NCBI GenBank assembly: GCA_963826075.1
Contig: CAWGVQ010000015.1
Span: 42,211 to 106,210, forward strand
DNA: 64,000 bases
Source: an uncultured Chloroflexia bacterium
GTDB taxonomy: Bacteria > Chloroflexota > Ktedonobacteria > Ktedonobacterales > JADMIN01
Direction: 5' to 3'
The notes beneath the pieces were generated by a model. That model was not told the origin of the DNA, ran no database searches, and was given only the letters and a program-made list of their open reading frames with translations. Each line of letters starts with the position of its first letter. The stretch's first letter is position 1. Made by a program: the position numbers and the translations under genes. This document shows, one piece after another, positions 12,049 to 52,006 of the stretch.

Positions 12049-12143
12049 TGTTCTGGCTACTCTCGCCATCTGACCACAAATTGACGGGTTCATCGTGCCC
12101 AACCTCCTCTTTTTATGAGTAGATTCAGTAAGTAGCCAGCACA
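12049..12143. repeat. 95-bp imperfect palindromic element, copy A
   Basis: TGTTCTGGCTACTCTCGCCATCTGACCACAAATTGACGGGTTCATCGTGCCCAACCTCCTCTTTTTATGAGTAGATTCAGTAAGTAGCCAGCACA. Confidence 0.92.
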
Positions 12144-12367
12144 GGGGTTTGTGTTTGGGGTACCTCTCGTTCTCAGCGCTACTCGGTACCGTCATGGCGC
12201 TCGCGACCTCCAGTGCGCCGGACCCATGATCCATACATAGTAAGCTGCGTGTTGTCGTCGGGCGCCTGCACCTGTTCACAACTGCGACTGTAGTAGTAGT
12301 TTATGTTTGGCACACGTAGATAGAACGCGGGCTACAGTAACGTCAGCGTGTACTCTTTGATCGATGA

Positions 12368-12419
12368 GCCCAAAAGGAAGGACGTCTACTTGCGTAAGTG
12401 GATGTCCTTCCCTTTGGGC
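12368..12419. other. Long hairpin (24-bp stem, 4-nt loop) of unknown role
   Basis: GCCCAAAAGGAAGGACGTCTACTT-GCGT-AAGTGGATGTCCTTCCCTTTGGGC; one mismatch and two G-T pairs. Confidence 0.7.
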
Positions 12420-12730
12420 ACTGTGCCGATAACTCCGCTAGCAAGCGAGCGCTACCCACGATCAACACCATACACCTGGTTTAGCTGCTGTCGCTAGCGA
12501 TGGCCGTCACCCGAAACGTGGTGATGCTCAAAAAGCCGCAGCTCCACACAGCTATTCATCTGTAAGAGCAGACAGCCGATAGTATTTGGGCCAGGTACGA
12601 TGTCTGCCAACCGTGCTGTGCCATACTGTGTGCGATCGAGTAATTTATGAAAAACTCAGCCTGGACAGCACTCGGACGGCCATGTTCTGGGCGCAATTGG
12701 AATACGACATTTCCGTAGAATAGAAGCACT

Positions 12731-13056
12731 ATGGACAGTGGCAAGACACGACTGAAGCAGGCTACCACAACTCTTAGAGACCGAGGAGAAATTCTCCTTC
12801 TTCTTCTTGCATAACTGTCGCTCGCTGGTTTGGAACTGCTGATTCTCGCCGAGATTGGTCCAGCAGGGAAAGGGGCCAATGGGTTCCTTGTCGCAGGAGG
12901 TACGCCATTGGGGGCAAGTCTGGCAGCCTTTTTCACCTATCTTACCTCCCGCTATTCTGTATTGGCAGGCTATCGAAAGGGGGCGAACCTTCAGCGCAAG
13001 GACGACTTGTACGGTCCGCTACTGACAGAACTGAACTATCTGCAACATAGCATTTG
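12731..13056 (+). pseudogene. Possible membrane-protein gene remnant
   Basis: MDSGKTRL...LLLLLA*LSLAGLELLILAEIG...LAAFFTYL...LYGPLLTEL has hydrophobic segments and an in-frame TAA; family not recognised. Confidence 0.35.
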
Positions 13057-13248
13057 CGGAAATCTCACGATGAGCATCCGTACCGCTTTTCGTAACGCTT
13101 GCGAGACGGGCAGCGAAGTATACTCCCTGAAGAAGCCCGCACATGGAGACGACATCGTCCTCAACTGCATGTTGGTTCGCCAGATAGCCTTTCGTCTGGA
13201 GCAGGGGCTCCTTTGAGGCGTCGTCCAGCGGCACCACGGGAGGGGCAG

Positions 13249-14529
13249 ATGAACCCGGACCAATTAGGGACACAAGACTCCCGCAGGCACAGACCCTGGC
13301 TCGTCTTGGCCAGGCTGCTCTGGATCGCCATTTTCCTGCTTACGCTTGTGGTCTTCTGTGCCAATCTCCTGGTCAACCGCTACGACCTCCTGGTGGTCGC
13401 CGACACCAGCGTGTGGTTCGCCGTCGGCCTTGTGCTGTTCTGGCGCAAGTCCACCGACCCGACTGTCCTGCTGTTTTCCCTGCTCCTCATCCTCCTGGGA
13501 GGCTTCTACATTCCCCCAGTTCCCTTCGCCTTGCGGCACGATGGCGTCTGGTGGGTTCCCATTGATGTTCTGGGACTGCTGAGCGGGGTGGCACTCAGCT
13601 TGGTGTATACGTTTCCCGATGGGCGCTTTGTCCCTCGATTCACCCGCTGGTTGGTATTGGGATGGATCGCCATCTCCCTGGTACCTGTGCCCATCCCTGG
13701 TGATGTCTATCCCTGGAACTGGTGGTTATTTCCTCCCTATACTCTGCTGCGCCTCGCGTTTAATGGCAGTCTGGCGCTCGCCCTGCTCTACCGCTATCGG
13801 CGGAGTGCCACGCCAGTCCAGCGTCAGCAGATCAAGTGGGTGGTCTTCGCCGGCTCCCTCCTCCTCGGAATCGCGAGTCTGTATCTGCTGGTCTCGTCCG
13901 TCCTGCCCTACTTCTTTCCCGTGCTCGGCCTCTCCCCGCAGCTGGTACACTTCCTCAGAGCGATTGCACTTGAACTCGTGCCCGTCCTCATCCCCCTTTC
14001 CTTCGGCATCGCCCTGCTGCGGTACCGGCTCTGGGATATCGATACGATCATCAACAGGGCGCTGGTGTATGGCTCGCTGACTGGGCTGCTGGGCGCGCTC
14101 TACGCGGGCCTGATCATTGGGCTGGAACATCTGGTGGGGCTGTTCGGCGGGACAGCAGCCCAAAACCCGGTGGTGCTGGTTATCTCCACGCTGGTGATCG
14201 CGGCACTCGTTCTGCCCGTGCGCCGCCGCATCCAGAACCTGATTGATCGGCGCTTCTATCGCAAGAAGTACGATGTGGAGAAGCTGCTCGCCTCCTTCAA
14301 CGCGACACTGCGCCAGGAGGTGGGTCTGGAGCAGATCCGCGAGCGGCTGCTTGCCGTGGTGCAGGAGACGATGCAGCCCGCTCATGTCTCACTGTGGCTG
14401 CAGCAGCCGGAACGGCATCCCGCAGATCTGGCCCATCGGCTGGAACTGCACACTCAGACGCCCGCGAGCCCAAGCCCGATTGAGCAGGGACGCGAGTCCG
14501 CAGTGCCGGGTTTGGATCCCGGCTGGTGA
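13249..14529 (+). CDS. Multi-pass membrane protein resembling the membrane/sensor part of histidine kinases, with no kinase domain
   Basis: FPDGRFVPR, QRQQIKWVV, ALLRYRLWDIDTIINRALVY, RRRIQNLIDRRFYR, VVQETMQPAHVSLWL; about 9-10 hydrophobic helices; GGAGG RBS. Confidence 0.8.
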   Translation: MNPDQLGTQDSRRHRPWLVLARLLWIAIFLLTLVVFCANLLVNRYDLLVVADTSVWFAVGLVLFWRKSTDPTVLLFSLLLILLGGFYIPPVPFALRHDGVWWVPIDVLGLLSGVALSLVYTFPDGRFVPRFTRWLVLGWIAISLVPVPIPGDVYPWNWWLFPPYTLLRLAFNGSLALALLYRYRRSATPVQRQQIKWVVFAGSLLLGIASLYLLVSSVLPYFFPVLGLSPQLVHFLRAIALELVPVLIPLSFGIALLRYRLWDIDTIINRALVYGSLTGLLGALYAGLIIGLEHLVGLFGGTAAQNPVVLVISTLVIAALVLPVRRRIQNLIDRRFYRKKYDVEKLLASFNATLRQEVGLEQIRERLLAVVQETMQPAHVSLWLQQPERHPADLAHRLELHTQTPASPSPIEQGRESAVPGLDPGW

Positions 14530-14601
14530 CGCCCATGGGACTCTGCCCTCCAGGGCAAACGGGTAACGAAATGCCCTCATAGTGCTCCTGACAAGGGAAG
14601 A

Positions 14602-14947
14602 ATGATGGCATCCTGGTGGCAAACAGCGGTTGTAGCGACGGCAGCCAGTGTGGTGGTCTTGATCGGATTAGTTGGCGGCGTGTATTACCTGCTGATGCGC
14701 CGTCCCCTGCCCAAAATCAAGGGCACGCTACACCTACAGCGACTGCACGAATCCGTTGACGTGATGACCGACCGCTATGGCATTCCGCACATCTATGCCA
14801 GGAACGAGGATGACTTGTTCTTTGCCCAGGGCTATGTGCATGCGCAGGAGCGATTGTGGCAGATGGAATTCAACCGGCGCCTTGGCTCTGGGCAGCTCTC
14901 CGAGCTTTTCGGCGCAGTTGCGCTCGACCTTGATCGCATCTGTCGCC
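14602..14947 (+). pseudogene. Penicillin acylase family N-terminal fragment
   Basis: DRYGIPHIYARNEDDLFFAQGYVHAQERLWQMEFNRR; similarity stops after about 115 aa. Confidence 0.88.
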
Positions 14948-14958
14948 AACGGACCTGC

Positions 14959-14973
14959 GAAGTAGCCAGGACA
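14959..14973. repeat. Solo end motif of the 95-bp element
   Basis: GAAGTAGCCAGGACA shares AAGTAGCCAGGACA with the right end of copy B; it lies about 11 bp after the acylase breakpoint. Confidence 0.75.
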
Positions 14974-14988
14974 CCAATCAACCAGTGA

Positions 14989-16380
14989 CTAAACAGCTGC
15001 GCGCACTGCCGCCTCGTCGGCTTGTACAAAGCGAGCGCCCCAAACACCGATGATACCAGCGGCGAGCAAGGCAGGCACACCAAGGATCAAGAAGGCGTAG
15101 CCGGGAGAATTGGCGTGGGTGATGCCGACCGAGTGGAAGAACGGGTTGCCACTGAGGTAATCGCTGAGTGCACCGGAAATGGTTGGAGCAAAGAGATCGC
15201 CGAGGAAATGCGAAAGTAGTAAAGTAAGCCCCACTGAGGCCGCGCGTTTCAGCGGGACTACCACATCCTGTGTGACTGCACTCAATGGTCCGGTATTGAC
15301 TTGCAACAGTGCCACGGTAACGATAAAGAGAGGAGTGAAGATGCCAAACACACGCACGTTGGGAGAAAGGCCTAGGGGCAGTATGACGGAGAGCACCGAT
15401 GCCACGAAAAGCGGCACTGCTATGAGGAAGCTCCAGCCACTGACCAACACCCGCGCGCCGGGGTAACGGGAGATGATGGCATCGGCAACGGCACCGCCTG
15501 CCAGTAATCCGGCAATGCCGCCGATCACAGCACCAACGCCTACCAGAGTCGTCGGCGATACCGCCAGGTTCGGGAATTCTCGAACAAAGAGTGGGACGAT
15601 AAAGACCAAGGTAGCGCCGAATACGAAGGAACTGAGTGCCTGCATGGCAATAACCACGCGCAGCGTCGGAACCTTCCACAGCTCCACGATATTGCGCCAA
15701 ATGCCACGCAAACCGGCGCGCGCCAATACCGTTTCGACACTAGCGTCATCTTCAGACTGACGCGGCGGCTCCTTGCAAAGAAATATCAACAGCGCCAGAA
15801 GCAACCCAGGAATGGCAAAGACATAGAAAATCGGACGCCACTGGTGACCAAAGACGTCGTAGAGCACTCCCGCACCGACAAATCCAACTGCCAACCCCAC
15901 CAGCAAACCAGTATTCCAGCGGCTCATGACCTTCGCACGGTCTTTGCCGGGATAGCTCGATGCCAGCATGGAGGTACTGGCGGGGAAATAACTGCCTTCG
16001 CCGAGACCGAGAGCTGCGCGGGTGGCAAAGATGAGGCCGTAACTGCTTGCCAGCGCGGTGAAAGCCGTCACAATGCTCCAAAAGGTGATACCCCAGCCCA
16101 CCACCGTCTTGCGCTTGATGCGATCCGCCAGTAATCCCAGGGGCAGAACACTCACGGTATACACAAACAGAAAGGAGGTTGCCAACAAGCCATACTCGGT
16201 GTCGGAGAGGCCGAATTCGATCTGCACATGGTCGCCGATCGCTAAGAATGCGTAGCGATCGGCATAGTTGACGAAGTTGGCCAACCACAGCAACCAGAAT
16301 ATATAGGCCGCATACTGGCGGCTGAGCGGTCTGGACACACCTTCAGTGGGAGCCCGAGACGATTCGACTACCTGGCTCAC
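14989..16380 (-). CDS. MFS transporter (spinster-like)
   Basis: NYADR, GLLADRIKRK (motif A), RAALGLGEG; 12 TM pattern; AAGGAG RBS before GTG 16380. Confidence 0.9.
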   Translation of the reverse strand: MSQVVESSRAPTEGVSRPLSRQYAAYIFWLLWLANFVNYADRYAFLAIGDHVQIEFGLSDTEYGLLATSFLFVYTVSVLPLGLLADRIKRKTVVGWGITFWSIVTAFTALASSYGLIFATRAALGLGEGSYFPASTSMLASSYPGKDRAKVMSRWNTGLLVGLAVGFVGAGVLYDVFGHQWRPIFYVFAIPGLLLALLIFLCKEPPRQSEDDASVETVLARAGLRGIWRNIVELWKVPTLRVVIAMQALSSFVFGATLVFIVPLFVREFPNLAVSPTTLVGVGAVIGGIAGLLAGGAVADAIISRYPGARVLVSGWSFLIAVPLFVASVLSVILPLGLSPNVRVFGIFTPLFIVTVALLQVNTGPLSAVTQDVVVPLKRAASVGLTLLLSHFLGDLFAPTISGALSDYLSGNPFFHSVGITHANSPGYAFLILGVPALLAAGIIGVWGARFVQADEAAVRAAV

Positions 16381-16636
16381 GAGGTTCTCCTTGGCGGGTA
16401 GCCAGTTACTGCCCACTTTCAAAATGACAAGAAATCATGCCAGCTGTGCCGCAAGGTAATCGCCGGCAGTGCTTGACCGTCAGCGCCTGGGCTGTAGTGC
16501 TGATCCAGTGAATAGCCGGTATCCAGAGTCCCGTCGCGCAGGTCCTGATGCAAGCGCGTGTAGGACTCGCCATGTGCCGATAGTCCACCAGTGAGATCGG
16601 CAAAGTAGGAGGTGTTCAGTGAACACAGATGACCTC

Positions 16637-18097
16637 CTACCCCAGCGGCACTTGTGTAGGATTTTCAGAGGCCGTCGAGAAGGTGCTTGATAGCGCACTC
16701 GGGGCTAGAACACGATACTGCCCCATGCTCCCCCCTTCCCAGAGGCAGAGGCTGGCGTGAGAAGGCCCTCCGTTTGCGGCCTGAATGAGCGCAAAGGTGC
16801 ATCGCGGCGGCACATCCCGCAACGGGACATGTGCCCTCGTCGGCTTACGGAGCCACGCCACGACCTCTGGCGTCACTTCTTCTGGCCGTGGCAGTGCCAG
16901 CCGAGACAGCCAGCTCCCCGTATTCAGGTACATCTGCTCTGGCGCCTTCCCGCTGTTGAACGAATCAAGGCGCACCTTATGGGTATGCCCTGCCAGCGCA
17001 TAACGCAGCGAGTGATCGCTTTTCAAGATCGGGTGCATCCCGGCGGCAACACTGTCCCCTGGCGTCGCAGAAGGCGCGCAGATCTTCCGAATCGACCTGG
17101 TTTGGTCCTTGGTGTGGCTTCCCCTGCTCACGGCTTGGTAGAGCAAGGCAACTTCCAGCAGCGTCTGCATCCGCGCCTGCAGTGAGGTTCTTTCTCCTAA
17201 AGGGTTCTTCCACTCTGGTGAACGCGCTGCTGCCTCCCGCTGAAAGGCCAGCAGGAGTTGAATCCCCTGGAGAAATAAGGTGACCGGTTTCTCTTCCTGG
17301 TTTGGACGTAGCTCGAGCAGCCTTCTGGCGGGCTGACTCTGCGCCCCGGTGGCCAGGATTTCCTGCAAATGCTGTATGTACTCCACGACAATCGGCGGAT
17401 CCAACAGGCACATCAGCGCCAACTGTCGTGGAAAACTCAGTGGAGGATCAAAGAGGATCAAGTACATGTAGCGTGCCAGAACGGGGTGGCCCGCGTGCTG
17501 AGCGTAGAGCGTATCCATCGGCAACGTGATTGTCTCTGGATAGCCTGTTCTCACGTGGCCCGACGCATCCCAGAAGTTGCTCCGATCATGATTCCAGAAG
17601 TCATAGGCATTGCCATGCTCAATATAGACATCCGGCAGTGGTCGATAGCTGCGCGAGGGGTAGAAACACACCCGTTCGTCGCCTGGCAACAGGCCCAACG
17701 CCTCCATGATTCCGGCCCGCACCTCCGCGAACCAGAGCTCCACATCATGATTGCCTGTCATGAAGGTAACATGCCGTCCGGGCTGGCTCACAAACGCGTG
17801 TAACGTCTGGAAGAATAGAGGATGCGCCGTCGTTATGTTCCGCAGTTTCTCTACCGCCAGACTGGCGTCCATCACCCCACCACTGCCGTACGGCGCCACC
17901 ATGAGAAAGTCGAAGCCATCTCCGTTGATGATCAACTCCACGTCATTAGCGTCTCCCAGCGGGCTCCCACTGTTCCCGCTCACCGCCGCCAGCAACCCTT
18001 CCAACGCCGCTTGTTGTCGCTCTCCAAACCCGTCAAGCAGTGGATCGCCATCCCCAACGTGAAGGTCACTCACAACCAGCTTGATTGTTTTCATCAT
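16637..18097 (-). CDS. Calcineurin-like metallophosphoesterase
   Basis: SDLH, NGDGFD, GNHD, EHG, GHTH, NTGSW motifs. Confidence 0.88.
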   Translation of the reverse strand: MMKTIKLVVSDLHVGDGDPLLDGFGERQQAALEGLLAAVSGNSGSPLGDANDVELIINGDGFDFLMVAPYGSGGVMDASLAVEKLRNITTAHPLFFQTLHAFVSQPGRHVTFMTGNHDVELWFAEVRAGIMEALGLLPGDERVCFYPSRSYRPLPDVYIEHGNAYDFWNHDRSNFWDASGHVRTGYPETITLPMDTLYAQHAGHPVLARYMYLILFDPPLSFPRQLALMCLLDPPIVVEYIQHLQEILATGAQSQPARRLLELRPNQEEKPVTLFLQGIQLLLAFQREAAARSPEWKNPLGERTSLQARMQTLLEVALLYQAVSRGSHTKDQTRSIRKICAPSATPGDSVAAGMHPILKSDHSLRYALAGHTHKVRLDSFNSGKAPEQMYLNTGSWLSRLALPRPEEVTPEVVAWLRKPTRAHVPLRDVPPRCTFALIQAANGGPSHASLCLWEGGSMGQYRVLAPSALSSTFSTASENPTQVPLG

Positions 18098-18110
18098 GAC
18101 TCTTCTTTTC

Positions 18111-18701
18111 TCAGTCGCCAGCGCGACAGAGCACAAACCAGGCATCGAGGGGGTGTCCCTCACGGATGACACGTCCAACGATCACATGCCGACTCACCCC
18201 TCGCACGGTGTCCCGGGTCCCGTAGTAGACGAAGCGGCTCAGGCGCTCCGAGTTGGGCCGGATCTTCGGCCATGCCGCCAGCTTGGACGGCGGAACGATT
18301 GTATAGTCAAATATCACCTCCTGGAGGCCCGCCGAATGGACGATAAAGTAGCCGGGACCGATGACCGCGCTGAGAGGGTGCTCGTTGTAGCCCCACAGCT
18401 CGTTCGTGGGGGCGTTGGGCCGGCAGAACCGCTTTGCAAAGGTGTGGAGTGCCGACAGGGAGTTGCGCCCGTAGTGCACCACCTCGCGAAGAGGTGGCGT
18501 CCCCTCCGGCACGAAGTGGGTCAGATCGATGGGGCGTGCGCCCGTCGCCTCGAAGAGCTTCGCTTGCTCATGCTTACCCAACGTCCGGACCTCGCGGAGG
18601 CGAGCGGACGCGTCGAGGTGGTCAAGATACTCCGCCAGACCGACCACATCCACCGCTGGGTCCGCCAGGTAGGTGTGGATGCTCGTCGAGTGTGTGATCA
18701 T
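18111..18701 (-). CDS. Hypothetical protein in an operon with the GMC oxidoreductase
   Basis: 196-aa ORF with GGAG RBS, tightly spaced between two co-oriented genes. Confidence 0.75.
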   Translation of the reverse strand: MITHSTSIHTYLADPAVDVVGLAEYLDHLDASARLREVRTLGKHEQAKLFEATGARPIDLTHFVPEGTPPLREVVHYGRNSLSALHTFAKRFCRPNAPTNELWGYNEHPLSAVIGPGYFIVHSAGLQEVIFDYTIVPPSKLAAWPKIRPNSERLSRFVYYGTRDTVRGVSRHVIVGRVIREGHPLDAWFVLCRAGD

Positions 18702-18720
18702 CTGTTCAGCTCCTTGGTTA

Positions 18721-20741: not shown

Positions 20742-21227
20742 AAAGTCTGGCGCAAGAAAGGGGGACCAATGAAGGTGCCGGCGGCCGGGGCTGATCGCAA
20801 GTTCGTCGTCTTTGGCGCTCTCGACCATGCGAGTGGGCAGATTATCTCCTCCCATAGTGAGCACAAAGGCGAGAACGCGTTCATCGCCTTTCTCGAGCAG
20901 GTGGCCCAGGCGTTACCTGCCGGCGAACCCGCGGTTCTGGTGCTCGACAATGCCGGCTACCATAAGAGCGCCGAGCTGCGGGCCTGGTGGCAGCAGCATG
21001 CCGACCGCTTCCAACCCTTCTGGCTGCCCGCCTACACCCCGCAGCTCAACCTGATCGAGTGCCTCTGGCGCTATGTGAAGCAGAAACTCGCCTGCCACCG
21101 CTGGTGGAACGACCTCGACCGCCTTATCCAGGCAACGGAAACCCTCCTGACCGGCCTTGAACTCCATGTTCACGCCACCGATGGACCGGACTTCGGGTCC
21201 GTCCAAAACTTTTGAGAGTCCGCTTAG
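20742..21227 (+). mobile_element. IS630-family remnant (3' half; transposase fragment 20769-21215)
   Basis: KVWRKKG...VFGALD...LVLDNAGYH...WLPAYTPQLNLIECLW (DDE_3 type); ends ...GAGTCCGCTTA, compatible with a TA target. Confidence 0.85.
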
Positions 21228-24087: not shown

Positions 24088-25446
24088 TTAGGGGATCGGG
24101 AGGAAAGCGCGCTCTCCTTTCTGATACGTATAGCCGTCAGCCTGCTGCAGTCGCCGACAAGAGCGGTATGGCACATCCGGCACGGCACGCTGCCTGGTGG
24201 TAATGGTAAACATGCCACTGGCTTTGATCGCCACTTTGCCTACATGGGTGCCGCGGGGCTTCCCGCTGGGCACCACGGCTTTCACAATGTCACCAGTTTT
24301 GAAGCCATAGGCTCGACTCGCTCCTTTGGCCCTGGTGCGTGGAAAACCACTTCCATTCATCAAACACATCTGCCGCCGTTGCCAGCGCTGGGCGCTGATC
24401 GCGAGCGGCACGACATCCCGCCAGCCCAGTAGCCGCTCGGGCGTACTCGCGCCCACACACAGCGCATCCAGCCAATGGGTCTTGGGCAGTCCGCGTTGGG
24501 TGCGGTTCCATTTGGTCACGCCGCCACTCGCCGTCTCCACCGGCAGCCCGAGTGCCAGCAGCCGCTGGTGCAACGCTCGCCGAGTGCTGTTGACCGCGGC
24601 AGCATCCCGCAAGGGGGTCTTGGCCTGGGCCTGCACCTCTGGATGGCCAAACTCTTCAGCCGTCCGGTCGCCCTTGGCTTGGTTGCAGGTATGACAGGAG
24701 AGCGCCAGATTGGCTGGGCGATCGCTCCCCCCACGACTTCGGGGACGGATATGGTCGATTTCCCAGCGATTGGTGGAGGTAGCTTCCTGGTGGCAGTACG
24801 CGCAGCGGTAGCTCCATTTGAGCAACAGATACTCTCGGACCTCGGTGCCGGCAAGGGTACCGTGCTGGTACGCCACACCAGCAATATCCGGGTGGTGCAG
24901 TAGCTGGGTATCGAAGCGCACCGTTTCGAAGGAAATCGCATCCACTGGACACCAGCGAGCCAAGCGCTGCACCCAGGTCACGACGTTGTGGACCCGACTC
25001 TCCAGCGAGGGTGGCAACCACCCATCAGGTCGGGTCCGGTTGGCAAAGCGGGCGGGACGATAGCGAGTGTGACGCTGACGGCGGGCGCGGGGGACAGCTC
25101 GCCGGTCCACGAGGGCATTGTGGACATCGTCACCGCGGTGGGCCAGGTCCGCGGCCCACACGACCGCACCGGCACGACTTCGTGGTGGTCTCCCCACTGG
25201 AACTGCTACTGAGGTGGGTGTGGGGCGGTGGCTCACCATCGCCAGACCGGTGGTTCGGCTGCCCGGATCAATCTTGAGTCGCACGGGTGCGACCACTGCT
25301 TCTGGCATGGCGGCGGTGAGGATGATGGTGAAGGGATACCTGCGCAGGACGGCTGCCCGATGCTGGGTGAGCAGGCGGCGCGCTCGCGCTGGCCGGCAGG
25401 GCATCAAGGGACGCCGGGTGGCATCCACCACAAAGACCTGTTGCAT
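24088..25446 (-). CDS. iscB: RNA-guided endonuclease IscB
   Basis: PLMP N-terminus, RARRLL, RuvC-I IDPGSRTTG, Arg-rich bridge helix RARRQRHTRYRPARF, RuvC-II FETVRFD, HNH CAYC...IDHIRPRSRGGSD...NL...C..CN, RuvC-III THWLDA. Confidence 0.96.
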   Translation of the reverse strand: MQQVFVVDATRRPLMPCRPARARRLLTQHRAAVLRRYPFTIILTAAMPEAVVAPVRLKIDPGSRTTGLAMVSHRPTPTSVAVPVGRPPRSRAGAVVWAADLAHRGDDVHNALVDRRAVPRARRQRHTRYRPARFANRTRPDGWLPPSLESRVHNVVTWVQRLARWCPVDAISFETVRFDTQLLHHPDIAGVAYQHGTLAGTEVREYLLLKWSYRCAYCHQEATSTNRWEIDHIRPRSRGGSDRPANLALSCHTCNQAKGDRTAEEFGHPEVQAQAKTPLRDAAAVNSTRRALHQRLLALGLPVETASGGVTKWNRTQRGLPKTHWLDALCVGASTPERLLGWRDVVPLAISAQRWQRRQMCLMNGSGFPRTRAKGASRAYGFKTGDIVKAVVPSGKPRGTHVGKVAIKASGMFTITTRQRAVPDVPYRSCRRLQQADGYTYQKGERAFLPIP

Positions 25447-25449: not shown

Positions 25450-25749
25450 CTTATACTCTCAGTTTCTTCCCCACACGTGAGGACGCCGTACACGGCGACG
25501 CTGGTGGTCTTGCGACGTCCAGGTAAAGTGATCCTCGTCCCGGTTGACGAGCGGTACGGTGTCCGGAGCACTGCGGCACCCAACCGCTGTTTAACTCCAG
25601 ACTTGCAGAGCTGGGGACTGGATCGGTCATCCCCAGGTGCGAGCTTGAACGCTCCTCGTCAACGGCTCCCTTCCTCCGTAGAGGGAGGGGGACTGGTCAG
25701 ATGGCCTGCCGAAGCAAGCCCGCTCCCTTCAGGGAGCCGGGTATCTGAC
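25450..25749 (-). ncRNA. omegaRNA (HEARO-type) scaffold
   Basis: About 300 nt directly upstream of iscB. GTCAGAT/ATCTGAC stem, GCTCCC-TGAA-GGGAGC and GGCTTGC-TTCG-GCAGGCC hairpins, GTTGACGAG/CTCGTCAAC long-range pairing, GTTAAACAG...CAGTG and CGAGG...TTTACC motifs. Confidence 0.88.
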
Positions 25750-30052: not shown

Positions 30053-30478
30053 CGATCGAGGATCTAGCAGGCCCTCGCCAGCTATCAGCCACCAACGATG
30101 GGTTAGCACCTGCAAGACACACAAGGTTCGAAACCATCAGTGCGTGAAGATTGCGGCTGGTGACAGCTTCCGTAACACCGGGCCCTCCCGCAGTTCAGAT
30201 GCCTATGGAGTCACTACCACTAAGTGTACCGTGACAATAAAGTCCGTCACTGACGATATGTTGCGAAGGCGACGGATATGTTCCACGAGCAACAATGTAG
30301 TTGCCGCGGATACTAAGTCGACGACATCTTGTCACAGCTAGCCATACATCGCAAGCGAGGGGCACCAGACGAACCATGTCTGGTGCCCCTCGCCATCCCT
30401 CCCAATTTAGACAAGGAGGCGTGCTCCTGATCAAGAACGTGAGGATCGACTCATACCTCTGCTCGTCAGCGAGCCGAA

Positions 30479-32920: not shown

Positions 32921-33015
32921 TGTGCTGGCTAGTTTCGCCATCTGATCACAAATTGACGGGTTCATCGTGCCCAACCTCCTCTTTTTATGAGTAGATTGAG
33001 TAAGTAGCCAGGACA
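32921..33015. repeat. 95-bp imperfect palindromic element, copy B
   Basis: TGTGCTGGCTAGTTTCGCCATCTGATCACAAATTGACGGG...GAGTAGATTGAGTAAGTAGCCAGGACA. Confidence 0.92.
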
Positions 33016-33061
33016 GCCCTGAAGAACGGGTATCGCCAATCCTACATGCTGAGCTTATAGT

Positions 33062-33077
33062 GAAAGTAGCCAGCACA
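33062..33077. repeat. Extra solo end motif 46 bp after copy B
   Basis: GAAAGTAGCCAGCACA, identical to the right end of copy D. Confidence 0.85.
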
Positions 33078-44058: not shown

Positions 44059-44060
44059 CT

Positions 44061-44089: not shown

Positions 44090-44157
44090 GCCGCGCTCAG
44101 CTGCATCACGGGCGAGTTTGGCCATGGCAGTGGAGACAACGGCTGTAGCAGGCAGCC

Positions 44158-45495: not shown

Positions 45496-45517
45496 GCGAG
45501 ATGTCCTGCCCCGGGCC

Positions 45518-46357
45518 TTACGACCATACCGCTCGGACTCGGCCTGCCACCTCGGCCGCCTGCGCGTGGCCTGCCTGGGCCGCGGGTGCGCGGCGCGCGG
45601 GATTAAGGACGTTGGGGCCAATAGCCGCACGGGACGCCGCATCGGGGCTCACGATGACAGAGCGCACATCCTTGCCTAGAGCGGCCACCTGAGCGGCAGG
45701 TCGGCTTGCGCGTCGAAATGCGGTCGTCGTGGGAGCGAGAACCACGACCCGGCCGTACCCCTTCACCAGGTCAATGTTGGCGACTGAGCGCATGCCACCA
45801 TCGATATGGCGCTGGCCATTGATGGTCACCGGCGGCCACACCAACGGCACCGCGCAACTCGCCGCGACGGCGTCAATCAGTGACACACCGCTGGTGTGGT
45901 CGAACACGACGGCGGCTCCCGTCTCCGCGTTCACTGACGTAATGAGCAGCCGCTGCTGCGGCCAGTCGTTTGTGGGCAATCTGCGCGCTATCACGGCGCG
46001 TCGCTCGGCCTCGGGAACCGTCTTGGCCCGCAGCGCAGCGTGTCCGAGCCGTGCGCGCGCTCGCTGCGGATCACCAGGCCACGCCATAGCGACCATGAAT
46101 CGGACCAGCACGGCGCCGCTCATGCGCGCGGCGATCTCGCCGGACTCCGCAGCCAACTGGGCGGCGTAGAGTTGTTCGAGCGGGACGCCGCTCGTCAATT
46201 GTGCGGCAACGACGGACCCGGCGGATGTTCCGACAAAGACATCAGCCATTGAAAGGTCGAGGCCAGCCTCAGCGAGACCCAGCAGCAACCCTGTCTCCCA
46301 AGCGACACCCGTGACCCCGCCACCGCCGAGCACCAAAGCCCTTTCACCACCTGACAT
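45518..46357 (-). CDS. Patatin-like phospholipase
   Basis: LVLGGGG, GTSAG, AASCAVP, IDGG. Confidence 0.92.
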   Translation of the reverse strand: MSGGERALVLGGGGVTGVAWETGLLLGLAEAGLDLSMADVFVGTSAGSVVAAQLTSGVPLEQLYAAQLAAESGEIAARMSGAVLVRFMVAMAWPGDPQRARARLGHAALRAKTVPEAERRAVIARRLPTNDWPQQRLLITSVNAETGAAVVFDHTSGVSLIDAVAASCAVPLVWPPVTINGQRHIDGGMRSVANIDLVKGYGRVVVLAPTTTAFRRASRPAAQVAALGKDVRSVIVSPDAASRAAIGPNVLNPARRAPAAQAGHAQAAEVAGRVRAVWS

Positions 46358-46661
46358 TGCTGGTGTCACGCTGCACCTTCTTCCGCCGCTTGCTCGTGCT
46401 GCCTTGATGCAGACAATCAGCACGAAAATACTGTTGGAGTCGCGCAGTCCATTGCGTTCACCAACGCGCAGCACCATCGCCTGTGCTTGACAGGGATGAT
46501 AGCATATTTGGTCGTCTGGAGCTAGCCCACTGCGGCAACTTCGTGGGGTCTGTAACGCGCTCTTTGAGGCCCTCGAACGCGAGAAAGATGCCCGAGCGAC
46601 GCCGAAAGAGCTTGAGGGCAGCGTCGTGGCGCCTATTGGTGCACCCTCGGGATGGCTCACG

Positions 46662-47129
46662 CTACATCCCATCCTCACCTAGGCGCCCTAACACAGCTTC
46701 CGCGATGGCGCCCAGGGCATCGAGTTGATCGGGGGTCAGGGCGTCCATGAGCGAACGGTGCACCGTTTGTTCGCAGACGCGGCGCGCTTCTTCCGCCAGC
46801 GCGCGCCCTTTCTCGGTGATCCGCACCACCGCTCCACGACTATCCTCCGCGCACTCCTCACGCGTGATGAGGCCGCGCGCCGCCATGCGACTGAGTTGAT
46901 GCGAGAGGCGACTCTTCTCCCACTCCAGCCCACAGCGCAACGCCATCGCCCGCACCGTCTCATTTGGCCAGGCCATAAGCGCCATCAAAATATCATAATC
47001 GGCTTCCGAGAGGCCCGCCGTTCGGGCCAACTCGCGCTGGATGCGTCCCGTTAGTCGCACACGCATCCGCTGGTAGCTGGCCCAGACCTCGGCCTCGCGC
47101 ACCGTCAGTTCTTCTGCTCTCATGCCCAT
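46662..47129 (-). CDS. MarR family regulator
   Basis: GLSEADYDIL, WEKSRLSHQLSRM, DSRG...ITEKG; divergent from the LLM operon. Confidence 0.9.
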   Translation of the reverse strand: MGMRAEELTVREAEVWASYQRMRVRLTGRIQRELARTAGLSEADYDILMALMAWPNETVRAMALRCGLEWEKSRLSHQLSRMAARGLITREECAEDSRGAVVRITEKGRALAEEARRVCEQTVHRSLMDALTPDQLDALGAIAEAVLGRLGEDGM

Positions 47130-47145
47130 ATCATACGCACAAAAG

Positions 47146-47191
47146 GTTGACACGTCAACAAATCGCACGCTATAGTAGTTGATGTATCAAC
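47146..47191 (+). promoter_or_regulatory. Promoter with two palindromic operators (probably MarR sites)
   Basis: GTTGACACGTCAAC (47146-47159) and GTTGATGTATCAAC (47178-47191) overlap or flank TTGACA...TATAGT. Confidence 0.8.
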
Positions 47192-47208
47192 CAAAGGAGT
47201 CAGCAACC

Positions 47209-49533
47209 ATGAACTATGGTCATTCACTGATATTCGGCTCATTCATCACCGCGCCCGCTGACAATCCCGAAACCGCTGTCGCCCTGGCGCAGCGCAGCGA
47301 GGCAGTCGGCCTGGATCTCGTTACTCTCCGCGACCATCCCGAACAGCCAGACCAGCTCGACGCTTGGACGGTACTAGCCTGGATCGCCGGGCAGACCGTA
47401 CACGTCCAACTCGCCGCCAACGTCCTGAACCTGCCGCTGCGTGACCCCGCCGTGCTGGCGCGCGCCGCCGTAAGCCTTGATCTGCTCAGCGGCGGACGGC
47501 TGGCGTTGGGACTAGGTGCAGGTCAGGCCCAACTCTGGGACGACTGGGCTGCGCTGGGCGTGAAGAAACTGACGCCTGGCCAATCCATCGCGGCCCTCAG
47601 CGAGGGGATCGACATTATTCGCGGCCTGTGGGATACCACCGAACGCCAGCCGTTTCGCTACGATGGCGTCTACTATCATCCGAGCGGCGCGCAACGCGGC
47701 CCGACTCCGGTGCACGACATTCCCATCTGGCTGGGCGCGGGCAAGCCTCGCGCGCTGCGGCTACTCGGCGCCAAAGCCGATGGCTGGTTCTCCTCACCGC
47801 AGTTGATGGGCGTTGACGCCTACCTCGCGAGCCTGGCGACGATTGACGAGGCAGCACGCGAGGCGGGCCGCGACCCGCGCGAGATTCGCCGCCTCATCAA
47901 CATTTTGGGCCGCTTCAGCGACGAGCGCGACGGCTTCCTGACCGGTTCGAGCGCGCAGTGGGTCGAAGATTTGCTGCCATACGTCATTGCGCATGGTGTC
48001 AGCGGCTTCATCCTCGTCTCCAGCGATGCCAACCAGATCGCGCGCTTCGGAGAGGAGGTCGCCCCGGCGCTGCGCGAGCACATGCTGCGCGAGGCGCCAG
48101 AGGCCATCGCAGGCGCCAGAATCCGCCGCGCTTCGGCCCTGGCCAAGCGGCGGAACGGCATCGCCTACGACGACCTTCCCGGTTCGCTGGCCGAGTGCGC
48201 CATCGAGCCGGGCGACCCCGCCTACGCGAACGTCCGCTCCACCTACATGCGCGGCGGCGCGCCAGGTCTCGTGCTGATGGTCCGCAACGCCCAGGAAGTC
48301 GCTGAGGCGCTGAAGTTCGCGCGGCGTCACCCCCTCCTGCCCTTCGGCGTGCGCAGCGGTGGGCATGGCCTCAGTGGCCGCTCGACCAACGATGGCGGCA
48401 TCATCATCAACCTTTCGCAAATGAACAGCATCGAGGTCATTGACAAGGCGACGCGACGTATCCGTGTCGGGCCAGGCGCGCGCTGGATGACCGTCGCCGA
48501 GAAGCTGGCGCCCTATGGCTGGGCGCTGAGTTCCGGCGATTACGGTGGCGTCGGCGTCGGCGGGTTGGCCACAGCGGGCGGCGTCGGCTTCCTCGCCCGC
48601 GAGCAAGGACTGACCATTGACCATTTGCGCGCCGTCGAGATGGTTCTCGCCGATGGCTCGATTGTCCGAGCCAGCGAGACCGAAAATCCCGGTCTCTTCT
48701 GGGCCGTGCGCGGCGCTGGGGCCAACTTCGGCATCGTAACCTCGTTCGAGTTCGAGGTCGGCGAAGTCGGCAATGTCGGCTGGGCTCAACTGGTTCTGGA
48801 CGCCAGCGATCCGGCGGATGTGCTGGAGCAGTGGGGCCGCGTCGTCGAGAACTCGCCGCGCGACCTGACGACCTTCATCATCATCTCTCCGCCGCGTCGG
48901 GGATTGCCGCTGCTGGCGCAGGTCTACGGCATCGTTGATTCCGACCAGGAGGAAACGATCATCGCGCGATTGCAGCCCATCGCTGACATCGCGCCGCTGT
49001 ATGACCAGCGCATCATCATCACGACCTACGCTACCGTCATGGCCAACGCCTCAGAAGAAGCGGTCTACGATACCCAGGGCGAACCCGCTGCGCGCTCCGC
49101 TTTGGTCAAACATATCACGCCGGAGTTCGCCGCCGACGCCGCGCGCCTCGTTCTCAACGGGACCTCGTATTTCTTCCAGATTCGTGCAGTTGGCGGTGCC
49201 GTTTCCGATGTCGCGCCCGACGCCACGGCTTACGCCGGGCGCTCGGCCAACTTCTCGGTGGTCGCGTTCGGCTCCAGCCGCGAGCGGCTCTTTAGCGCCT
49301 GGGATAAGATGGCGCCGCACTTCAACGGGCTGTATCTTAGCTTCGATTCCGACACGCGCCCCGAACGCATCAACGACGCCTTCCCACCTGCAACGCTGGC
49401 GCGTCTGCGCGAACTCAAGGCGCGCTATGATCCCGACAACGTCTTCCGCGACAACTTCAACATCACGCCGCTCAGGGCCAACGAGGTCGCGGCCATGAAT
49501 GGCCAGCGAGCCGACAAAGGAGACCATGAATGA
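47209..49533 (+). CDS. LLM-class monooxygenase domain fused to an FAD-linked oxidase (BBE-like) domain
   Basis: DHP..., LDLLSGGRLALGLGAG; then VRSGGHG, VGVGGLATAGG, LFWAVRGAGANFGIVT, LKARYDPDNVF. Confidence 0.9.
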   Translation: MNYGHSLIFGSFITAPADNPETAVALAQRSEAVGLDLVTLRDHPEQPDQLDAWTVLAWIAGQTVHVQLAANVLNLPLRDPAVLARAAVSLDLLSGGRLALGLGAGQAQLWDDWAALGVKKLTPGQSIAALSEGIDIIRGLWDTTERQPFRYDGVYYHPSGAQRGPTPVHDIPIWLGAGKPRALRLLGAKADGWFSSPQLMGVDAYLASLATIDEAAREAGRDPREIRRLINILGRFSDERDGFLTGSSAQWVEDLLPYVIAHGVSGFILVSSDANQIARFGEEVAPALREHMLREAPEAIAGARIRRASALAKRRNGIAYDDLPGSLAECAIEPGDPAYANVRSTYMRGGAPGLVLMVRNAQEVAEALKFARRHPLLPFGVRSGGHGLSGRSTNDGGIIINLSQMNSIEVIDKATRRIRVGPGARWMTVAEKLAPYGWALSSGDYGGVGVGGLATAGGVGFLAREQGLTIDHLRAVEMVLADGSIVRASETENPGLFWAVRGAGANFGIVTSFEFEVGEVGNVGWAQLVLDASDPADVLEQWGRVVENSPRDLTTFIIISPPRRGLPLLAQVYGIVDSDQEETIIARLQPIADIAPLYDQRIIITTYATVMANASEEAVYDTQGEPAARSALVKHITPEFAADAARLVLNGTSYFFQIRAVGGAVSDVAPDATAYAGRSANFSVVAFGSSRERLFSAWDKMAPHFNGLYLSFDSDTRPERINDAFPPATLARLRELKARYDPDNVFRDNFNITPLRANEVAAMNGQRADKGDHE

Positions 49534-50429
49534 CCGATTACGGACACGATCTGCAATTCGGCGTCTTTGTCACGCCGACGGCGACCCCGGCGCAGCAGGC
49601 GGTGGACATGGCGGTGGTGGCGGAGAACGCAGGCTTCGACCTGGCGAGCTTCCAGGATCATCCCTACCAGCCACGCTTCCTCGATACCTGGACACTGATC
49701 GCCTACGCCGCCGCGCGCACCAAGCGCATTCACCTCGGCGGCAACGTCATCAACCTGCCGCTTCGCCAGCCTGCCGTGCTGGCCAAGTCTGCCGCCAGCC
49801 TCGACCGGCTCAGCGGTGGCCGCGTGGAGATGGGCCTCGGCGCGGGCGGCTTTTGGGACGCGATTGAGTCTATGGGCGGGCGCCGACTGACCGCTGGCGA
49901 ATCCATTGATGCGCTGGAGGAGGCGATGACGATCATGCGCCAACTCTGGGATACGAGCGAGCGCGGCGGTGTCTTCGTCAACGGCCGGTATTATCAGGTC
50001 AATGGTGCCAAACGCGGCCCAGCCCCGGCGCACGACATCCCCATCTGGGTGGGCGCTTACAAGCCCAAAATCCTGCGGCTCGTCGGGCGCGCGGCAGACG
50101 GCGTGGTCCCCTCGCTGCCCTACCTGCAAGGTGGCCTCTCTGACCTGAACGACATCAACAAGTATATTGATGAAGGCGCCGAGCAGGTCGGGCGTCCAGT
50201 TACGGCTATTCGCCGCATGCTCAACATCGGCGGCCAGTTCACCCGCAACGGGACCTCGCTGCTCAACGGCCCGCCTGCGCAATGGGCCGAGGACCTGGCG
50301 GGCATCGCCCTGGAATACGGCGTCTCGACCTTCATCTGCATGGGTGACGACGCCGCGACCATCGAGTTATTCGCCAACGAGGTCATCCCCGCTACGAAGG
50401 CGCTGGTCGCCGAGGAAAGGACGAAGTAA
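49530..50429 (+). CDS. LLM-class flavin-dependent oxidoreductase
   Basis: FQDHPYQP, SLDRLSGGRVEMGLGAG, IPIWVGA; ATGA overlap with the upstream gene. Confidence 0.92.
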   Translation: MTDYGHDLQFGVFVTPTATPAQQAVDMAVVAENAGFDLASFQDHPYQPRFLDTWTLIAYAAARTKRIHLGGNVINLPLRQPAVLAKSAASLDRLSGGRVEMGLGAGGFWDAIESMGGRRLTAGESIDALEEAMTIMRQLWDTSERGGVFVNGRYYQVNGAKRGPAPAHDIPIWVGAYKPKILRLVGRAADGVVPSLPYLQGGLSDLNDINKYIDEGAEQVGRPVTAIRRMLNIGGQFTRNGTSLLNGPPAQWAEDLAGIALEYGVSTFICMGDDAATIELFANEVIPATKALVAEERTK

Positions 50430-50436
50430 GTGATAG

Positions 50437-50487
50437 TCGTGCCCAACCTCCTCTTTTTATGAGTAGGTTGCGAAAGTAGTCAGCACA
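50437..50487. repeat. Right half of the 95-bp element (copy C)
   Basis: TCGTGCCCAACCTCCTCTTTTTATGAGTAGGTTGCGAAAGTAGTCAGCACA, 7 bp after the LLM stop. Confidence 0.9.
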
Positions 50488-50659
50488 ACCATGTTCAAGT
50501 CATCAGTCATCTGGTGATCCTCCTCTCAGGCTCCGAAGCAACTAACCGATGAGAATCACCTGGTGGCCGATCTTGTCAACTGGCCACTTACTCCTACATA
50601 CATACGTGCGTGGACACTATCCTCGGCTACAACATCCCATCTTCATGGCCATAGCCTCT

Positions 50660-51577
50660 TCAATGCCCTGCTATTTGCTGCACCTGTTGCAAGAGCGCCA
50701 GTTTGTCATCCAGTGAAGCACCTTCAACGGCACGGAAGGCGAAGAAGGCCTGCTCGACGTTGATGGCGCGTAACGGTTCGAGATCGTGCGCGATCTGGTC
50801 TGCCGAGCCGCCGAGGAAGGGCCGCCCCTCGCCCATCGGCTGTGTGGTGACTGGCACGTTGGCGCGAACATAGATCGGCAATGCGGCGGGGTCGCGCTTG
50901 GCGCGAGTTGCTGCTTCACGGAAGAGTGCTATCTGCGCGACAAGGTCTTCTTGCGTCCCGGCAACGGGATTGAAACCGTCAGCGATGCGACCGGCCCGCT
51001 CGATGGCGGTCGGTGCTGCCACGCCCATGATGATGGGAATGCCACGGGGCTGGACTGGCTTAGGATTAATTTTCGAGGACGGGATATGATAGTGGCGCCC
51101 AGAGAAGGAGACGGGGTCTGGCCCCCAAACCGCTCGCATCGCCGCGATCATTTCCTCAACACCCTGACCGCGCAGTTTCGGTGAGCGATCCATCACGTCG
51201 AATTCTTGCTGCATCCAGCCCTGGCCCAACCCAGCGATCACGCGACCATCGCTGAATTGATCGAGCGTCGCCAGGCGTTTGCCCAGCATCACTGGCGCGT
51301 GGAACGGCGCATCCAAAACGCTGATACCCAGTGCAATGGTAGTGGTCTTCGCGGCGATATAGGCTAGCGTCTCGATGGGATCATACGAGACGGCATATAC
51401 TGGGGGCAGCGGGGCTGTTCCGCCTGCCACGTTGCTGCCGCCATCGATCGGGTACAAAAGCCGCTCGAAGGTCCAGACAGAAGCATACCCCATGCGTTCC
51501 GCTTCCATAGCGACGCGCGTGATGTCTTGGGGTGGCGTGAATGGTGCGCTAGTCGGAAGGCTGATACCAAATTTCAT
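50660..51577 (-). CDS. LLM-class (probably F420-dependent) oxidoreductase
   Basis: MKFGISLP, DPIETLAYIAAKT, LATLDQFSDGRVIAGLGQGW, NPKPVQ; GAGGAG RBS. Confidence 0.9.
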   Translation of the reverse strand: MKFGISLPTSAPFTPPQDITRVAMEAERMGYASVWTFERLLYPIDGGSNVAGGTAPLPPVYAVSYDPIETLAYIAAKTTTIALGISVLDAPFHAPVMLGKRLATLDQFSDGRVIAGLGQGWMQQEFDVMDRSPKLRGQGVEEMIAAMRAVWGPDPVSFSGRHYHIPSSKINPKPVQPRGIPIIMGVAAPTAIERAGRIADGFNPVAGTQEDLVAQIALFREAATRAKRDPAALPIYVRANVPVTTQPMGEGRPFLGGSADQIAHDLEPLRAINVEQAFFAFRAVEGASLDDKLALLQQVQQIAGH

Positions 51578-51911
51578 TGTGTAGGCAGCTCCTCTCATCA
51601 TGAGCTGTGTCCAGATGCCGATGGCGGCTCCCTTCGCCTCTGCACGAGCGCTCAGCACGTCAATCACGTGGCACGCCATCTCGGGGCAGCAGGAATAAGG
51701 AATGCAACCGGCACATATCTCGTTTATCATGTACTACGCCGTCGCAGCATACCGTTTGAGTACGGCTCTCTGCTCCGGTGGCGAACACACAATGTGCTAG
51801 CTCTATACTACAACAGCCGTTACAGACACGGCATTAGTGACAAACTTAATTTACGCGCCACAAGTGTGCGCGGACAATAAAGTCGGACACCGACCATGTG
51901 TTGTGATGACG

Positions 51912-52006
51912 TGTGCTGGCTACTTTCGCCATCTGACCACAAATTAACGGGTTCATTATGCCCAATCTCCTATTTTTATGAGTAGATTTAGAAAGTAGCC
52001 AGCACA
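51912..52006. repeat. 95-bp imperfect palindromic element, copy D
   Basis: TGTGCTGGCTACTTTCGCCATCTGACCACAAATTAACGGG...GAGTAGATTTAGAAAGTAGCCAGCACA; perfect 16-bp terminal IR. Confidence 0.92.

Follow-up and report, generated by a model that had tools for sequence, protein, structure and literature searches.

Bacterial MITEs derived from insertion sequences (ISs), such as MITEAba12, are small and gene-free, and their termini are those of a resident IS. A target site duplication (TSD) is usually listed among MITE features. Members of the IS481 family are 0.95–1.3 kb long with TSDs of 4–15 bp, and the TSDs of the IS3 family are 3–5 bp. In the translocatable units of IS26 and the IS6 family, accessory modules are flanked by copies in direct orientation that have no TSDs of their own, and truncated genes occur at the ends. 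For the IS1202 family, the available part of a preprint gives a length of 1.3–2 kb, TGT ends, and a second conserved box near position 20; a transposase of 400–500 aa, distantly related to IS481 and IS3; and repeats of 5–6, 16–17 or 27–28 bp (bioRxiv 10.1101/2022.12.17.520857).

In this study, a repeated 95-bp unit was analysed in a window of 64,000 nucleotides (the whole stretch of DNA under analysis) on contig C15 of genome G000. The unit is very probably a MITE, that is, a non-autonomous miniature derivative of an IS family of 1.5–1.58 kb, and it is called the MITE below. Such miniatures are a common sort of mobile DNA. No description of this IS or MITE was found in the literature searched, an absence that is not proof of being unpublished. 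The positions of the features are given in Table 1.

Table 1. Elements and broken genes on contig C15. Positions marked C15 refer to the contig; all others refer to the window.
Feature	Position	Strand	Remarks
IS_a	C15:346-1913		full-length IS, apparently intact transposase gene
IS_b	C15:8568-10144		full-length IS, apparently intact transposase gene
Epoxide hydrolase pseudogene	11274..12047	-	without first ~139 codons; broken at copy A left end
MITE copy A	12049..12143	+	95 bp; left end adjoins broken epoxide hydrolase pseudogene
Penicillin amidase N-terminal fragment	14602..14949	+	Pfam PF01804 8.8e-30, profile positions 2-66 of 675
Solo terminal inverted repeat	14944..14973	-	transposase-distal IS end, body deleted; from end comparison
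MITE copy B	32921..33015	+	95 bp; 94% identity to copy A
Right-end piece of IS_b-type IS	33016..33077	+	62 bp; 96.8% identity to IS_b positions 1516-1577
Right half of MITE copy	50437..50487	+	51 bp; 90% identity to MITE positions 45-95
End of second, unrelated repeated element	51864..51911	+	TGT then repeated ~20-bp subterminal motifs
MITE copy C	51912..52006	+	95 bp; 90% identity to copy A; best-paired arms

The three 95-bp copies and the right half listed by the first-pass annotation were all found in place. A scan for the 13-nt end motif with up to two mismatches gave 15 matches against 3.24 expected (shuffles: standard deviation 1.63, largest 7). The ends of the unit were TGTGCTGG...CCAGCACA, i.e., TGT...ACA, in the three full copies. 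The unit was short, gene-free and non-coding, and consisted of two terminal inverted repeats (TIRs) of about 32 nt and a 31-nt centre. The sole frame starting within it gave peptides of 5–53 aa, different from copy to copy. The conserved centre contained a Shine-Dalgarno-like GAGGAGG and an ATG reading outward through one end. A promoter scan found no sigma-70-like site in or around copies A and C, and no Rfam family matched the MITE. The dyad symmetry of the unit is simply its two TIRs. The arms were 78% complementary over 32 nt. Single-stranded DNA folding of copies A, B and C gave −9.8, −14 and −18 kcal/mol (z −1.2, −3.0 and −4.6), so the long imperfect hairpin described earlier is weak in copy A. 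The half copy started 8 bases past the stop codon of a luciferase-like monooxygenase gene.

The first-pass annotation had offered a MITE as one reading, had placed the enzyme outside the window, and had suggested looking for a long element with the same ends. Such elements were found. IS_a and IS_b (~1.57 kb, 74% mutual identity) lay on the contig of the window copies, 40–54 kb upstream of them, and carried DDE transposase genes, and same-ended transposase-encoding ISs of 1.5–1.58 kb were also present across the order, which supported the MITE reading. Each IS had a single ORF of 422 or 426 codons, stop to stop. The transposase ORF matched Pfam rve_3 at 7.5e-10 and was 94% identical to a 367-aa database protein. 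Its relatives were ~371 aa long; among 8000 scored candidates, 7532 had E ≤ 0.001. The D, D and E motifs were readable in the transposase sequences as WACDF, RDNDAKF and CERF. PGAP-annotated plasmid relatives, all below 60% identity, were named only "integrase core domain-containing protein". The best NCBIfam match was IS481 NF033577 with 81.3 bits against a cut-off of 224, and IS3 NF033516 gave 76.1 bits against a cut-off of 160. Judged by its sequence, the predicted transposase is related to IS481 and IS3, its nearest families, yet it does not reach the curated cut-off of either. A search of G000 for the Mu-transposase_C family gave no match, and the control genomes likewise gave none.

The termini connected the MITE with these ISs. 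The first 14 terminal bases were identical between the MITE and the ends of IS_a and IS_b, and 20–23 of 28 terminal positions agreed between the MITE and the ends of IS_a, IS_b and their relatives. TGTGCTGGCTACTT, followed by an ATC(T/C)G box near positions 20–25, was common to the MITE arms and the IS ends, so that the MITE has its termini in common with an autonomous transposase-encoding element. The MITE centre matched no part of IS_a or IS_b, and both arms resembled the transposase-proximal IS end slightly more; the direct parent IS was therefore not found. Most likely, the MITE would be moved in trans by the single-ORF DDE (rve_3) transposase of the family.

The same termini bear on the proposal that the units are attC-like or dif-like sites, between which, in their common orientation, a recombinase encoded elsewhere shuffles modules. 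This is extremely improbable. MITE copies on one contig were co-oriented in 8 of 8 comparisons, TSDs were absent and the modules on either side were unrelated, which is consistent with such sites; however, only three of the eight agreements lay outside the discovery contig (P 0.125), and the unit ends equal those of a DDE-transposase IS. The copies have both ends complete, unlike half-site exchanges. The ends read TGT...ACA in all three copies, and the attC motifs RYYYAAC/GTTRRRY were absent, as observed at the outset. No integrase co-occurred; the only integrase-family ORF in the window was a 135-aa Phage_integrase fragment (753–1157), 11 kb away. An undescribed attC-like capture system is therefore not supported: the termini belong to an IS that carries a transposase, and no recombinase travels with the copies. 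Full-length IS copies showed no clear orientation bias. A pooled orientation statistic for MITE and IS was dropped because MITE arms cannot be typed against IS ends. GC skew showed no trend along C15 and thus offered no means of relating orientation to replication.

A common orientation had first been claimed for all pieces. It held for the MITE copies and failed for the solo repeat at 14944–14973, which was inverted relative to IS_a and IS_b. This repeat was identical at 26–27 of 30 positions to the distal ends of IS_a and two G037 ISs, and at only 13–17 of 30 to the proximal ends of the closest ISs. The 13-mer end motif occurred in it without mismatch. The solo end reported at 14959–14973 was thus present, and was longer than described (at least 30 bp). 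The other reported solo end, 33062–33077, was not a bare end but the tip of the 62-bp IS_b-like piece, which directly adjoins copy B.

The distribution of the elements was investigated in 169 genomes of the order. IS DNA with a conserved TIR of ~25 bp was present in 22 of them, and the MITE in 6, with flanks always different. G000 had five full MITE copies, one half copy and one without its right end, and at least nine further copies occurred in five other genomes; the contexts of the copies were unrelated. The G000 copies were not genome-wide: all were on C15 except one on C19, and this clustering on a single 190-kb contig had a P of 2.7e-9 under uniform spread. Mutual identity was 86–94% within G000, so none of these copies is recent, and 82–97% when other genomes were included. 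Among the matches listed, same-ended derivatives of 62, 135, 331 and 532 bp occurred in other Chloroflexota classes. A 14-mer contig scan yielded mostly chance matches and at least six useful family members. In four soil or rhizosphere metagenome runs, compared as contigs with 5–11% of query words, soil contigs carried the MITE with other left flanks, and also joined at 52066 rather than 52007.

From this distribution it could be argued that the units are immobile relics, i.e., that an old deletion derivative was spread only by segmental duplication and by riding larger mobile DNA. The copies are alike without being identical, they cluster on one contig, and at least six copies in three genomes have a neighbour of about 40 to 230 bp in common on their right side. 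However, every copy has a different left flank, similarity ends within 0–3 nt of TGT and ACA, the common neighbour is missing to the right of copies A, B and C, and the metagenome contigs show further flanks. Relics are therefore very unlikely. Copy C sits inside or beside the second repeated element, which also flanks the MITE at C15:15158 and C15:127100 of G000, in G037 and in G038. This element is a possible carrier DNA if the units are relics.

As the first-pass annotation had said, no TSD was present at any window copy. Adjacent direct repeats of at least 3 bp were found at 0 of 36 validly set insertion sites, against 3.7% in shuffled pairings, and no direct repeats up to 44 bp were found at element copies. 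The MITE had no fixed-length TSD, and copies of the parent IS were also without one. Left-end/right-end pairs in four clusters had no TSD split across them, the sole match being a 4-bp GGGG. The flanks were biased towards CC|..|GG: in rows counted by eye, CC preceded the element in 15 of 37 and GG followed it in 12 of 37, against ~3.3 expected. On balance, the two ends are probably joined by the transposase to a single position within a target that is weakly palindromic and CC|GG-like, in which case no duplication would arise.

Alternatively, ordinary TSDs were made and then lost at every examined copy through recombination between copies, adjacent deletion or drift. Breakpoints are common (the epoxide hydrolase and amidase truncations, the half copy and the solo ends), an IS in G143 joins loci that are apart in congeners, and the available part of the IS1202 preprint explains occasional copies without direct repeats in this way (bioRxiv 10.1101/2022.12.17.520857). 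Such a loss is rather unlikely, since the sites without TSD include ISs found alone or nearly alone in their genome, the end pairs showed no split TSD, and random rearrangement would erase the consistent CC|GG bias. The first suggestion, that recombination between copies accounts for the absence of TSDs, is doubtful: single IS copies in many other genomes have none either, and no split TSDs were found.

Element copies often lay at breakpoints, with truncated genes or with flanks drawn from unrelated loci, consistent with the reshuffled flanks described at first. Both gene truncations reported earlier were confirmed. The epoxide hydrolase homology on the minus strand reached 12047, two bases from copy A. 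The pseudogene had an in-frame stop at about 11955–11957 and matched epoxide hydrolase residues 150–385 in a PDB phmmer search (2.9e-44). In tblastn with a C8 paralogue (410 aa) as query, residues 140–410 aligned to window 12047–11274. The rest of C15 did not contain the lost N-terminal part. The penicillin amidase match stopped near 14949, at the inner side of the solo repeat.

The right flank of the G143 IS was uninterrupted in G142 and G141, beginning exactly after ACA. Its left flank mapped to a different contig, and G143 lacked the neighbour expected on that side. The IS thus joins two loci lying apart in congeners, and no clean filled/empty pair was obtained from the comparison with G142 and G141. 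In G037 C70, two MITEs 3.4 kb apart surrounded a segment 89% identical to G000 C8, a weak candidate for a composite transposon, as the homology ended ~211 bp short of each MITE. A flank search in three genomes of the genus gave no syntenic counterpart as an empty site for copies A, B and C; the matches were the MITE itself and scattered paralogous pieces only. Neither a transposition event nor an empty site or circle junction was observed for the 95-bp unit. Deletions or exchanges starting at element ends could quite plausibly have produced the gene truncations, the half copy and the solo ends.

It is also conceivable, albeit unlikely, that this branch of the IS3/IS481 superfamily and its MITEs never duplicate the target, either by CC|GG one-position joining or by an IS26-like exchange of flanks. 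If true, the element would serve in Ktedonobacteria as a portable junction at which accessory modules are put together and broken up, which would account for the clustering, the common orientation of the MITEs and the gene truncations at element ends. The elements also mark where an accessory region is broken, in a bacterial class that is rich in transposons and little studied. The candidate "new recombination system" is replaced by a testable pair, a 95-bp MITE and a 1.5-kb DDE-transposase IS. The IS family is a large one, with thousands of relatives, and has no IS-family name in the annotation examined. If the TSD absence is intrinsic, the transposase would be instructive on how the strand-transfer stagger is set by rve-type enzymes, and TSD-based MITE and IS finders would miss the family.

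Compared with known systems, the 95-bp unit differs from integron attC sites in that its ends lack the core sites, and the only integrase-family ORF in the window is the 135-aa fragment rather than an IntI gene near the copies. Like the IS481 family, this IS has a single-ORF rve-type DDE transposase and ends starting 5'-TGT; unlike it, the IS is 1.5–1.58 kb long and has no TSD. With the IS3 family it shares TGT ends, a related DDE core, and a leucine-zipper-like stretch before the catalytic domain. It differs from the two-ORF frameshift arrangement of IS3, as one uninterrupted ORF spans the full length of the 371-aa relatives, and it has no 3–5 bp TSD. As far as the available part of the preprint describes IS1202, this IS resembles it in length, TGT ends, the box near position 20, and distant IS481/IS3 kinship, whereas the shorter relatives (~371 aa) and the absence of any repeat up to 44 bp set it apart. 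The transposase family is unrelated to that of IS26 and IS6, and no TSD is split across copy pairs; the directly oriented copies bounding accessory modules, the absence of own TSDs and the truncated genes at element ends are similar. Unlike other IS-derived MITEs, the 95-bp unit lacks a TSD at every copy, is low in copy number, is confined to one accessory contig, and has a centre with GAGGAGG and an outward ATG. Like them, it is small and gene-free, has the termini of a resident IS, and occurs as several copies in different contexts, some beside or within genes.

Sequence comparison confirmed that the window carries three full copies and a right half of the 95-bp palindromic unit, placed as in the first-pass annotation. 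Allowing up to 2 mismatches, the 13-nt end motif occurred at 15 sites in the window; the expectation was 3.24 (sd 1.63), and 0 of 100 shuffles reached 15. The arms were 32 nt long and 78% complementary. Single-stranded DNA folding of copies A, B, and C gave −9.8, −14, and −18 kcal/mol (z = −1.2, −3.0, and −4.6). Pairing was concentrated in the terminal 12–16 bp, and the dyad symmetry was therefore attributed to two terminal inverted repeats (TIRs). In copy A and all close copies, the minus strand of the conserved centre has GAGGAGG, a 9-nt spacer, and ATG. From this ATG, present in 13 of the 14 copies compared, the frame runs past the left end without meeting a stop within the unit; the peptides were 5–53 aa, and no fusion with a flanking gene was seen. 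A minus-strand gene was present at the left-end side of each of copies A, B, and C.

Coordinates of the 95-bp unit, the partner insertion sequences (IS), and other mobile-element features; C15 and C19 are contigs of the source assembly, L080–L082 element loci; the window spans C15:42211–106210
Feature	Location	Strand	Description
Copy A	window 12049–12143	+	95 bp
Copy B	window 32921–33015	+	94% identity to copy A
Copy C	window 51912–52006	+	90% identity to copy A
Right half	window 50437–50487	+	half copy
IS_a	C15:346–1913		1568 bp, paired end motifs
IS_b	C15:8568–10144		1577 bp, paired end motifs
Second repeated element	window 51864–51911
Second repeated element	window 30224–30271
Second repeated element	C15:15158–15386
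Second repeated element	C15:127100–127138
Second repeated element	C19:158305–158522
Second repeated element	L080, L081, L082
IscB-type gene	window 24091–25446	−	Pfam RRXRR (3.3e-65) and HNH
HEARO RNA	window 25523–25749	−	Rfam RF02033, 128 bits (gathering score 83); just upstream of IscB-type gene
DDE_5 transposase fragment	window 3–746	−
Phage_integrase piece	window 753–1157	−
DDE_3 transposase piece	window 20769–21212	+

A scan of the genome for the end motif gave two end pairs spaced 1.57 kb near the start of C15. These elements, IS_a and IS_b (74% identity), are of the kind that the first-pass annotation had proposed to look for, long and with the same ends as the unit plus a transposase gene. 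Each contained a single long ORF (422 or 426 codons between stops) that matched Pfam rve_3 (7.5e-10). The top NCBIfam models were IS481, at 81.3 bits against a cut-off of 224, and IS3, at 76.1 bits against 160. A 367-aa database protein was 94% identical to the ORF, and 7532 of 8000 scored candidates were relatives at E ≤ 0.001, the best ones mostly 371–372 aa. The relatives were named only "integrase core domain-containing protein" (Ktedonobacteraceae, Chloroflexi) or "putative transposase"; plasmid-borne ones were all below 60% identity and likewise had no IS-family name. D, D, and E motifs were legible in the transposase sequences.

The arms of the unit and the IS ends had TGTGCTGGCTACTT in common, and beyond it an ATC(T/C)G box close to position 20. 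The arm matched assorted IS ends at 16–23 of 28 terminal positions and, for the closest ISs, their transposase-proximal ends at 20–23. The centre of the unit had no matching part in IS_a or IS_b, so a direct parent IS was not found. The first-pass annotation had offered two readings, a MITE with reshuffled flanks or attC-like sites of an undescribed capture system. The second was rejected, the ends being those of a transposase-bearing IS. The attC end motifs were absent from the copies, and no IntI-like gene was found nearby in the window.

IS DNA was found in 22 of the 169 genomes of the order (E ≤ 1e-20), as elements of 1.5–1.58 kb bounded by a conserved, roughly 25-bp TIR. The unit was found in 6 of 169 genomes and 4 of 62 genera (E ≤ 1e-4), with different flanks every time; both counts include the source assembly. 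Among the matches listed in a 14-mer scan were a 1407-bp IS with the same ends in an Anaerolineales MAG and same-ended derivatives of 62, 135, 331, and 532 bp in other Chloroflexota; the scan was otherwise noisy, and the members found are a minimum. Four other left flanks preceded the unit in soil metagenome contigs. In two contigs from two soil runs, the unit (33016 side) continued, after a single additional T, with the window from 52066 onward, not 52007; therefore, the joint in a related strain lies 59 bp right of that of copy C. The spread and flanks fit a putative mobile element that is not autonomous and derives from a transposase-bearing IS, and the MITE reading was supported by these together with the shared ends and the partner IS.

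The first-pass annotation had reported no target site duplication (TSD) at the full copies. Bases directly left and right of elements were compared for repeats of 2–44 bp at 39 boundaries (9 configurations in the source assembly, 18 full IS copies, and 12 short derivatives); L029 was excluded because its flank was too short. An adjacent repeat of at least 3 bp was found at 0 of 39 boundaries, against 3.7% in shuffled left/right pairings, and a 2-bp match at 5 of 39, against 15% in controls. Three rows were invalid: L022 and L024 (5 nt off) and the C19 copy (right end undefinable). Neither L022 nor L024 had a flanking repeat when re-read by eye. The 36 valid rows, for 35 elements (copy B was entered with two alternative right ends), were all free of adjacent repeats of at least 3 bp, in agreement with the first-pass annotation. 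A TSD split over two copies, as in an unresolved cointegrate, was sought among all left/right-end pairs of four clusters, and only one 4-bp GGGG was found. A possible resemblance to IS26 arrays was addressed by this search. Some few DDE groups are listed in ISfinder with repeat length 0. In a family IS split by an 836-bp insertion (G142:C5:142165–144565), query positions 577–584 were present on both sides, and the other element had thus made an 8-bp duplication.

The flanks were biased. Base −1 was C in 20, T in 12, G in 7, and A in 0 rows, and base +1 was G in 24, C in 7, A in 6, and T in 2 (39 rows, 3 unreliable). By hand count, the dinucleotide directly before the element was CC in 15 of 37 rows (P 2.8e-7) and the one directly after it was GG in 12 of 37 (P 6e-5), each compared with an expectation of about 3.3; some rows have a common flank and are not independent. 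We infer that the target is weakly palindromic and is joined with no stagger, or that the TIR extends by two further, poorly conserved positions.

Breakpoints were found at element ends. Copy A adjoins a minus-strand epoxide hydrolase pseudogene, whose homology to a 410-aa paralogue (residues 140–410) stopped at 12047, as the reported truncation implied; the absent N-terminal part was not found on C15. Another truncated epoxide hydrolase piece lies at window 6392–6802. The reported penicillin acylase truncation at the 14959 end was also borne out: an amidase fragment (Pfam positions 2–66 of 675) continues into the solo repeat 14944–14973 from its inner side. Among the closest ISs, this repeat matched transposase-distal ends at 26–27 of 30 positions and proximal ends at 13–17, and it was inverted relative to IS_a and IS_b; the statement that all copies and ends are co-oriented fails for the 14959–14973 end. 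Immediately right of copy B, with no gap, lay the final 62 bp of an IS_b-type element. In genome G143, which has a single full IS copy, the right flank of that copy ran unbroken in two congeners, beginning with the first base beyond ACA; the left flank mapped to another contig in the congeners, and the expected left neighbour was missing from G143. These breakpoints indicate that family elements are often located where unrelated stretches of DNA meet. The junctions may have been made by the transposase (adjacent deletion or end-targeted exchange) or by later recombination. Several IS copies in other genomes had a further terminal repeat of this kind, 94–527 bp outside or inside one end: this was seen in L035 (1170/1264) and L058 (2653/2757), both on G066:C19, and in L037 (1030/1279) and L042 (1607/2134); window 33015/33077 is comparable. 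This suggests that elements land in or beside each other's ends.

In the whole 7.0-Mb assembly, all copies but one lay on C15, where five were complete and one was the half copy, each on the + strand; the remaining copy, on C19, was on the − strand with its right end missing. Thus, 6 of 7 copies lay on 2.7% of the assembly (P 2.7e-9 under uniform spread). Because the arms of the unit cannot be typed as distal or proximal, its orientations were counted separately from those of the ISs. Same-contig orientation of the unit agreed in 8 of 8 cases (C15 five; G037 C70, G037 C118, where an additional copy was found, and G038 C7 one each), or 1 in 256, with only 3 of 8 outside the discovery contig (P 0.125). 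IS-derived pieces agreed in 7 of 10 (C15 4/5, G038 C7 1/2, G066 C19 0/1, G140 C11 2/2), which is not remarkable. GC skew along C15 gave no replication direction.

A second repeated element begins with TGT and has several subterminal repeats of about 20 bp (GACAATAAAGTC..CAC-like), an architecture that recalls Tn7-type or IS21-type ends. A 40–230-bp piece of it adjoined the right end of the unit in at least six copies from three genomes, and it adjoined copy C at its left end. A 4.88-kb segment with SDR, glyoxalase-family, unknown 382-aa, and TetR genes was tandemly duplicated at window 2005–11770, with 100% identity in the stretches reported. The IscB-type gene and HEARO RNA constitute an ISC-type RNA-guided nuclease element. 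With its fragments of other mobile-element genes, the region forms an accessory patchwork.

The unit resembled bacterial MITEs in every MITE feature tested but the TSD, which it lacked. IS481 and IS3 were nearest to the IS described here, yet it scored below the curated cut-off of each. Its single ORF sets it apart from IS3, and it is longer than IS481 elements and without their TSD. For the IS1202 family, TGT ends and a second box near position 20 are described, as found here, whereas the transposases are larger and the repeats are 5–28 bp (10.1101/2022.12.17.520857). By NCBIfam scores and annotation, the IS belongs to an uncatalogued-looking branch of the IS3/IS481 superfamily, and the unit is a MITE of this branch. 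Its remaining interest lies in three features: target duplication is consistently absent, the flanks are biased to CC|GG, and the copies are associated with breakpoints.
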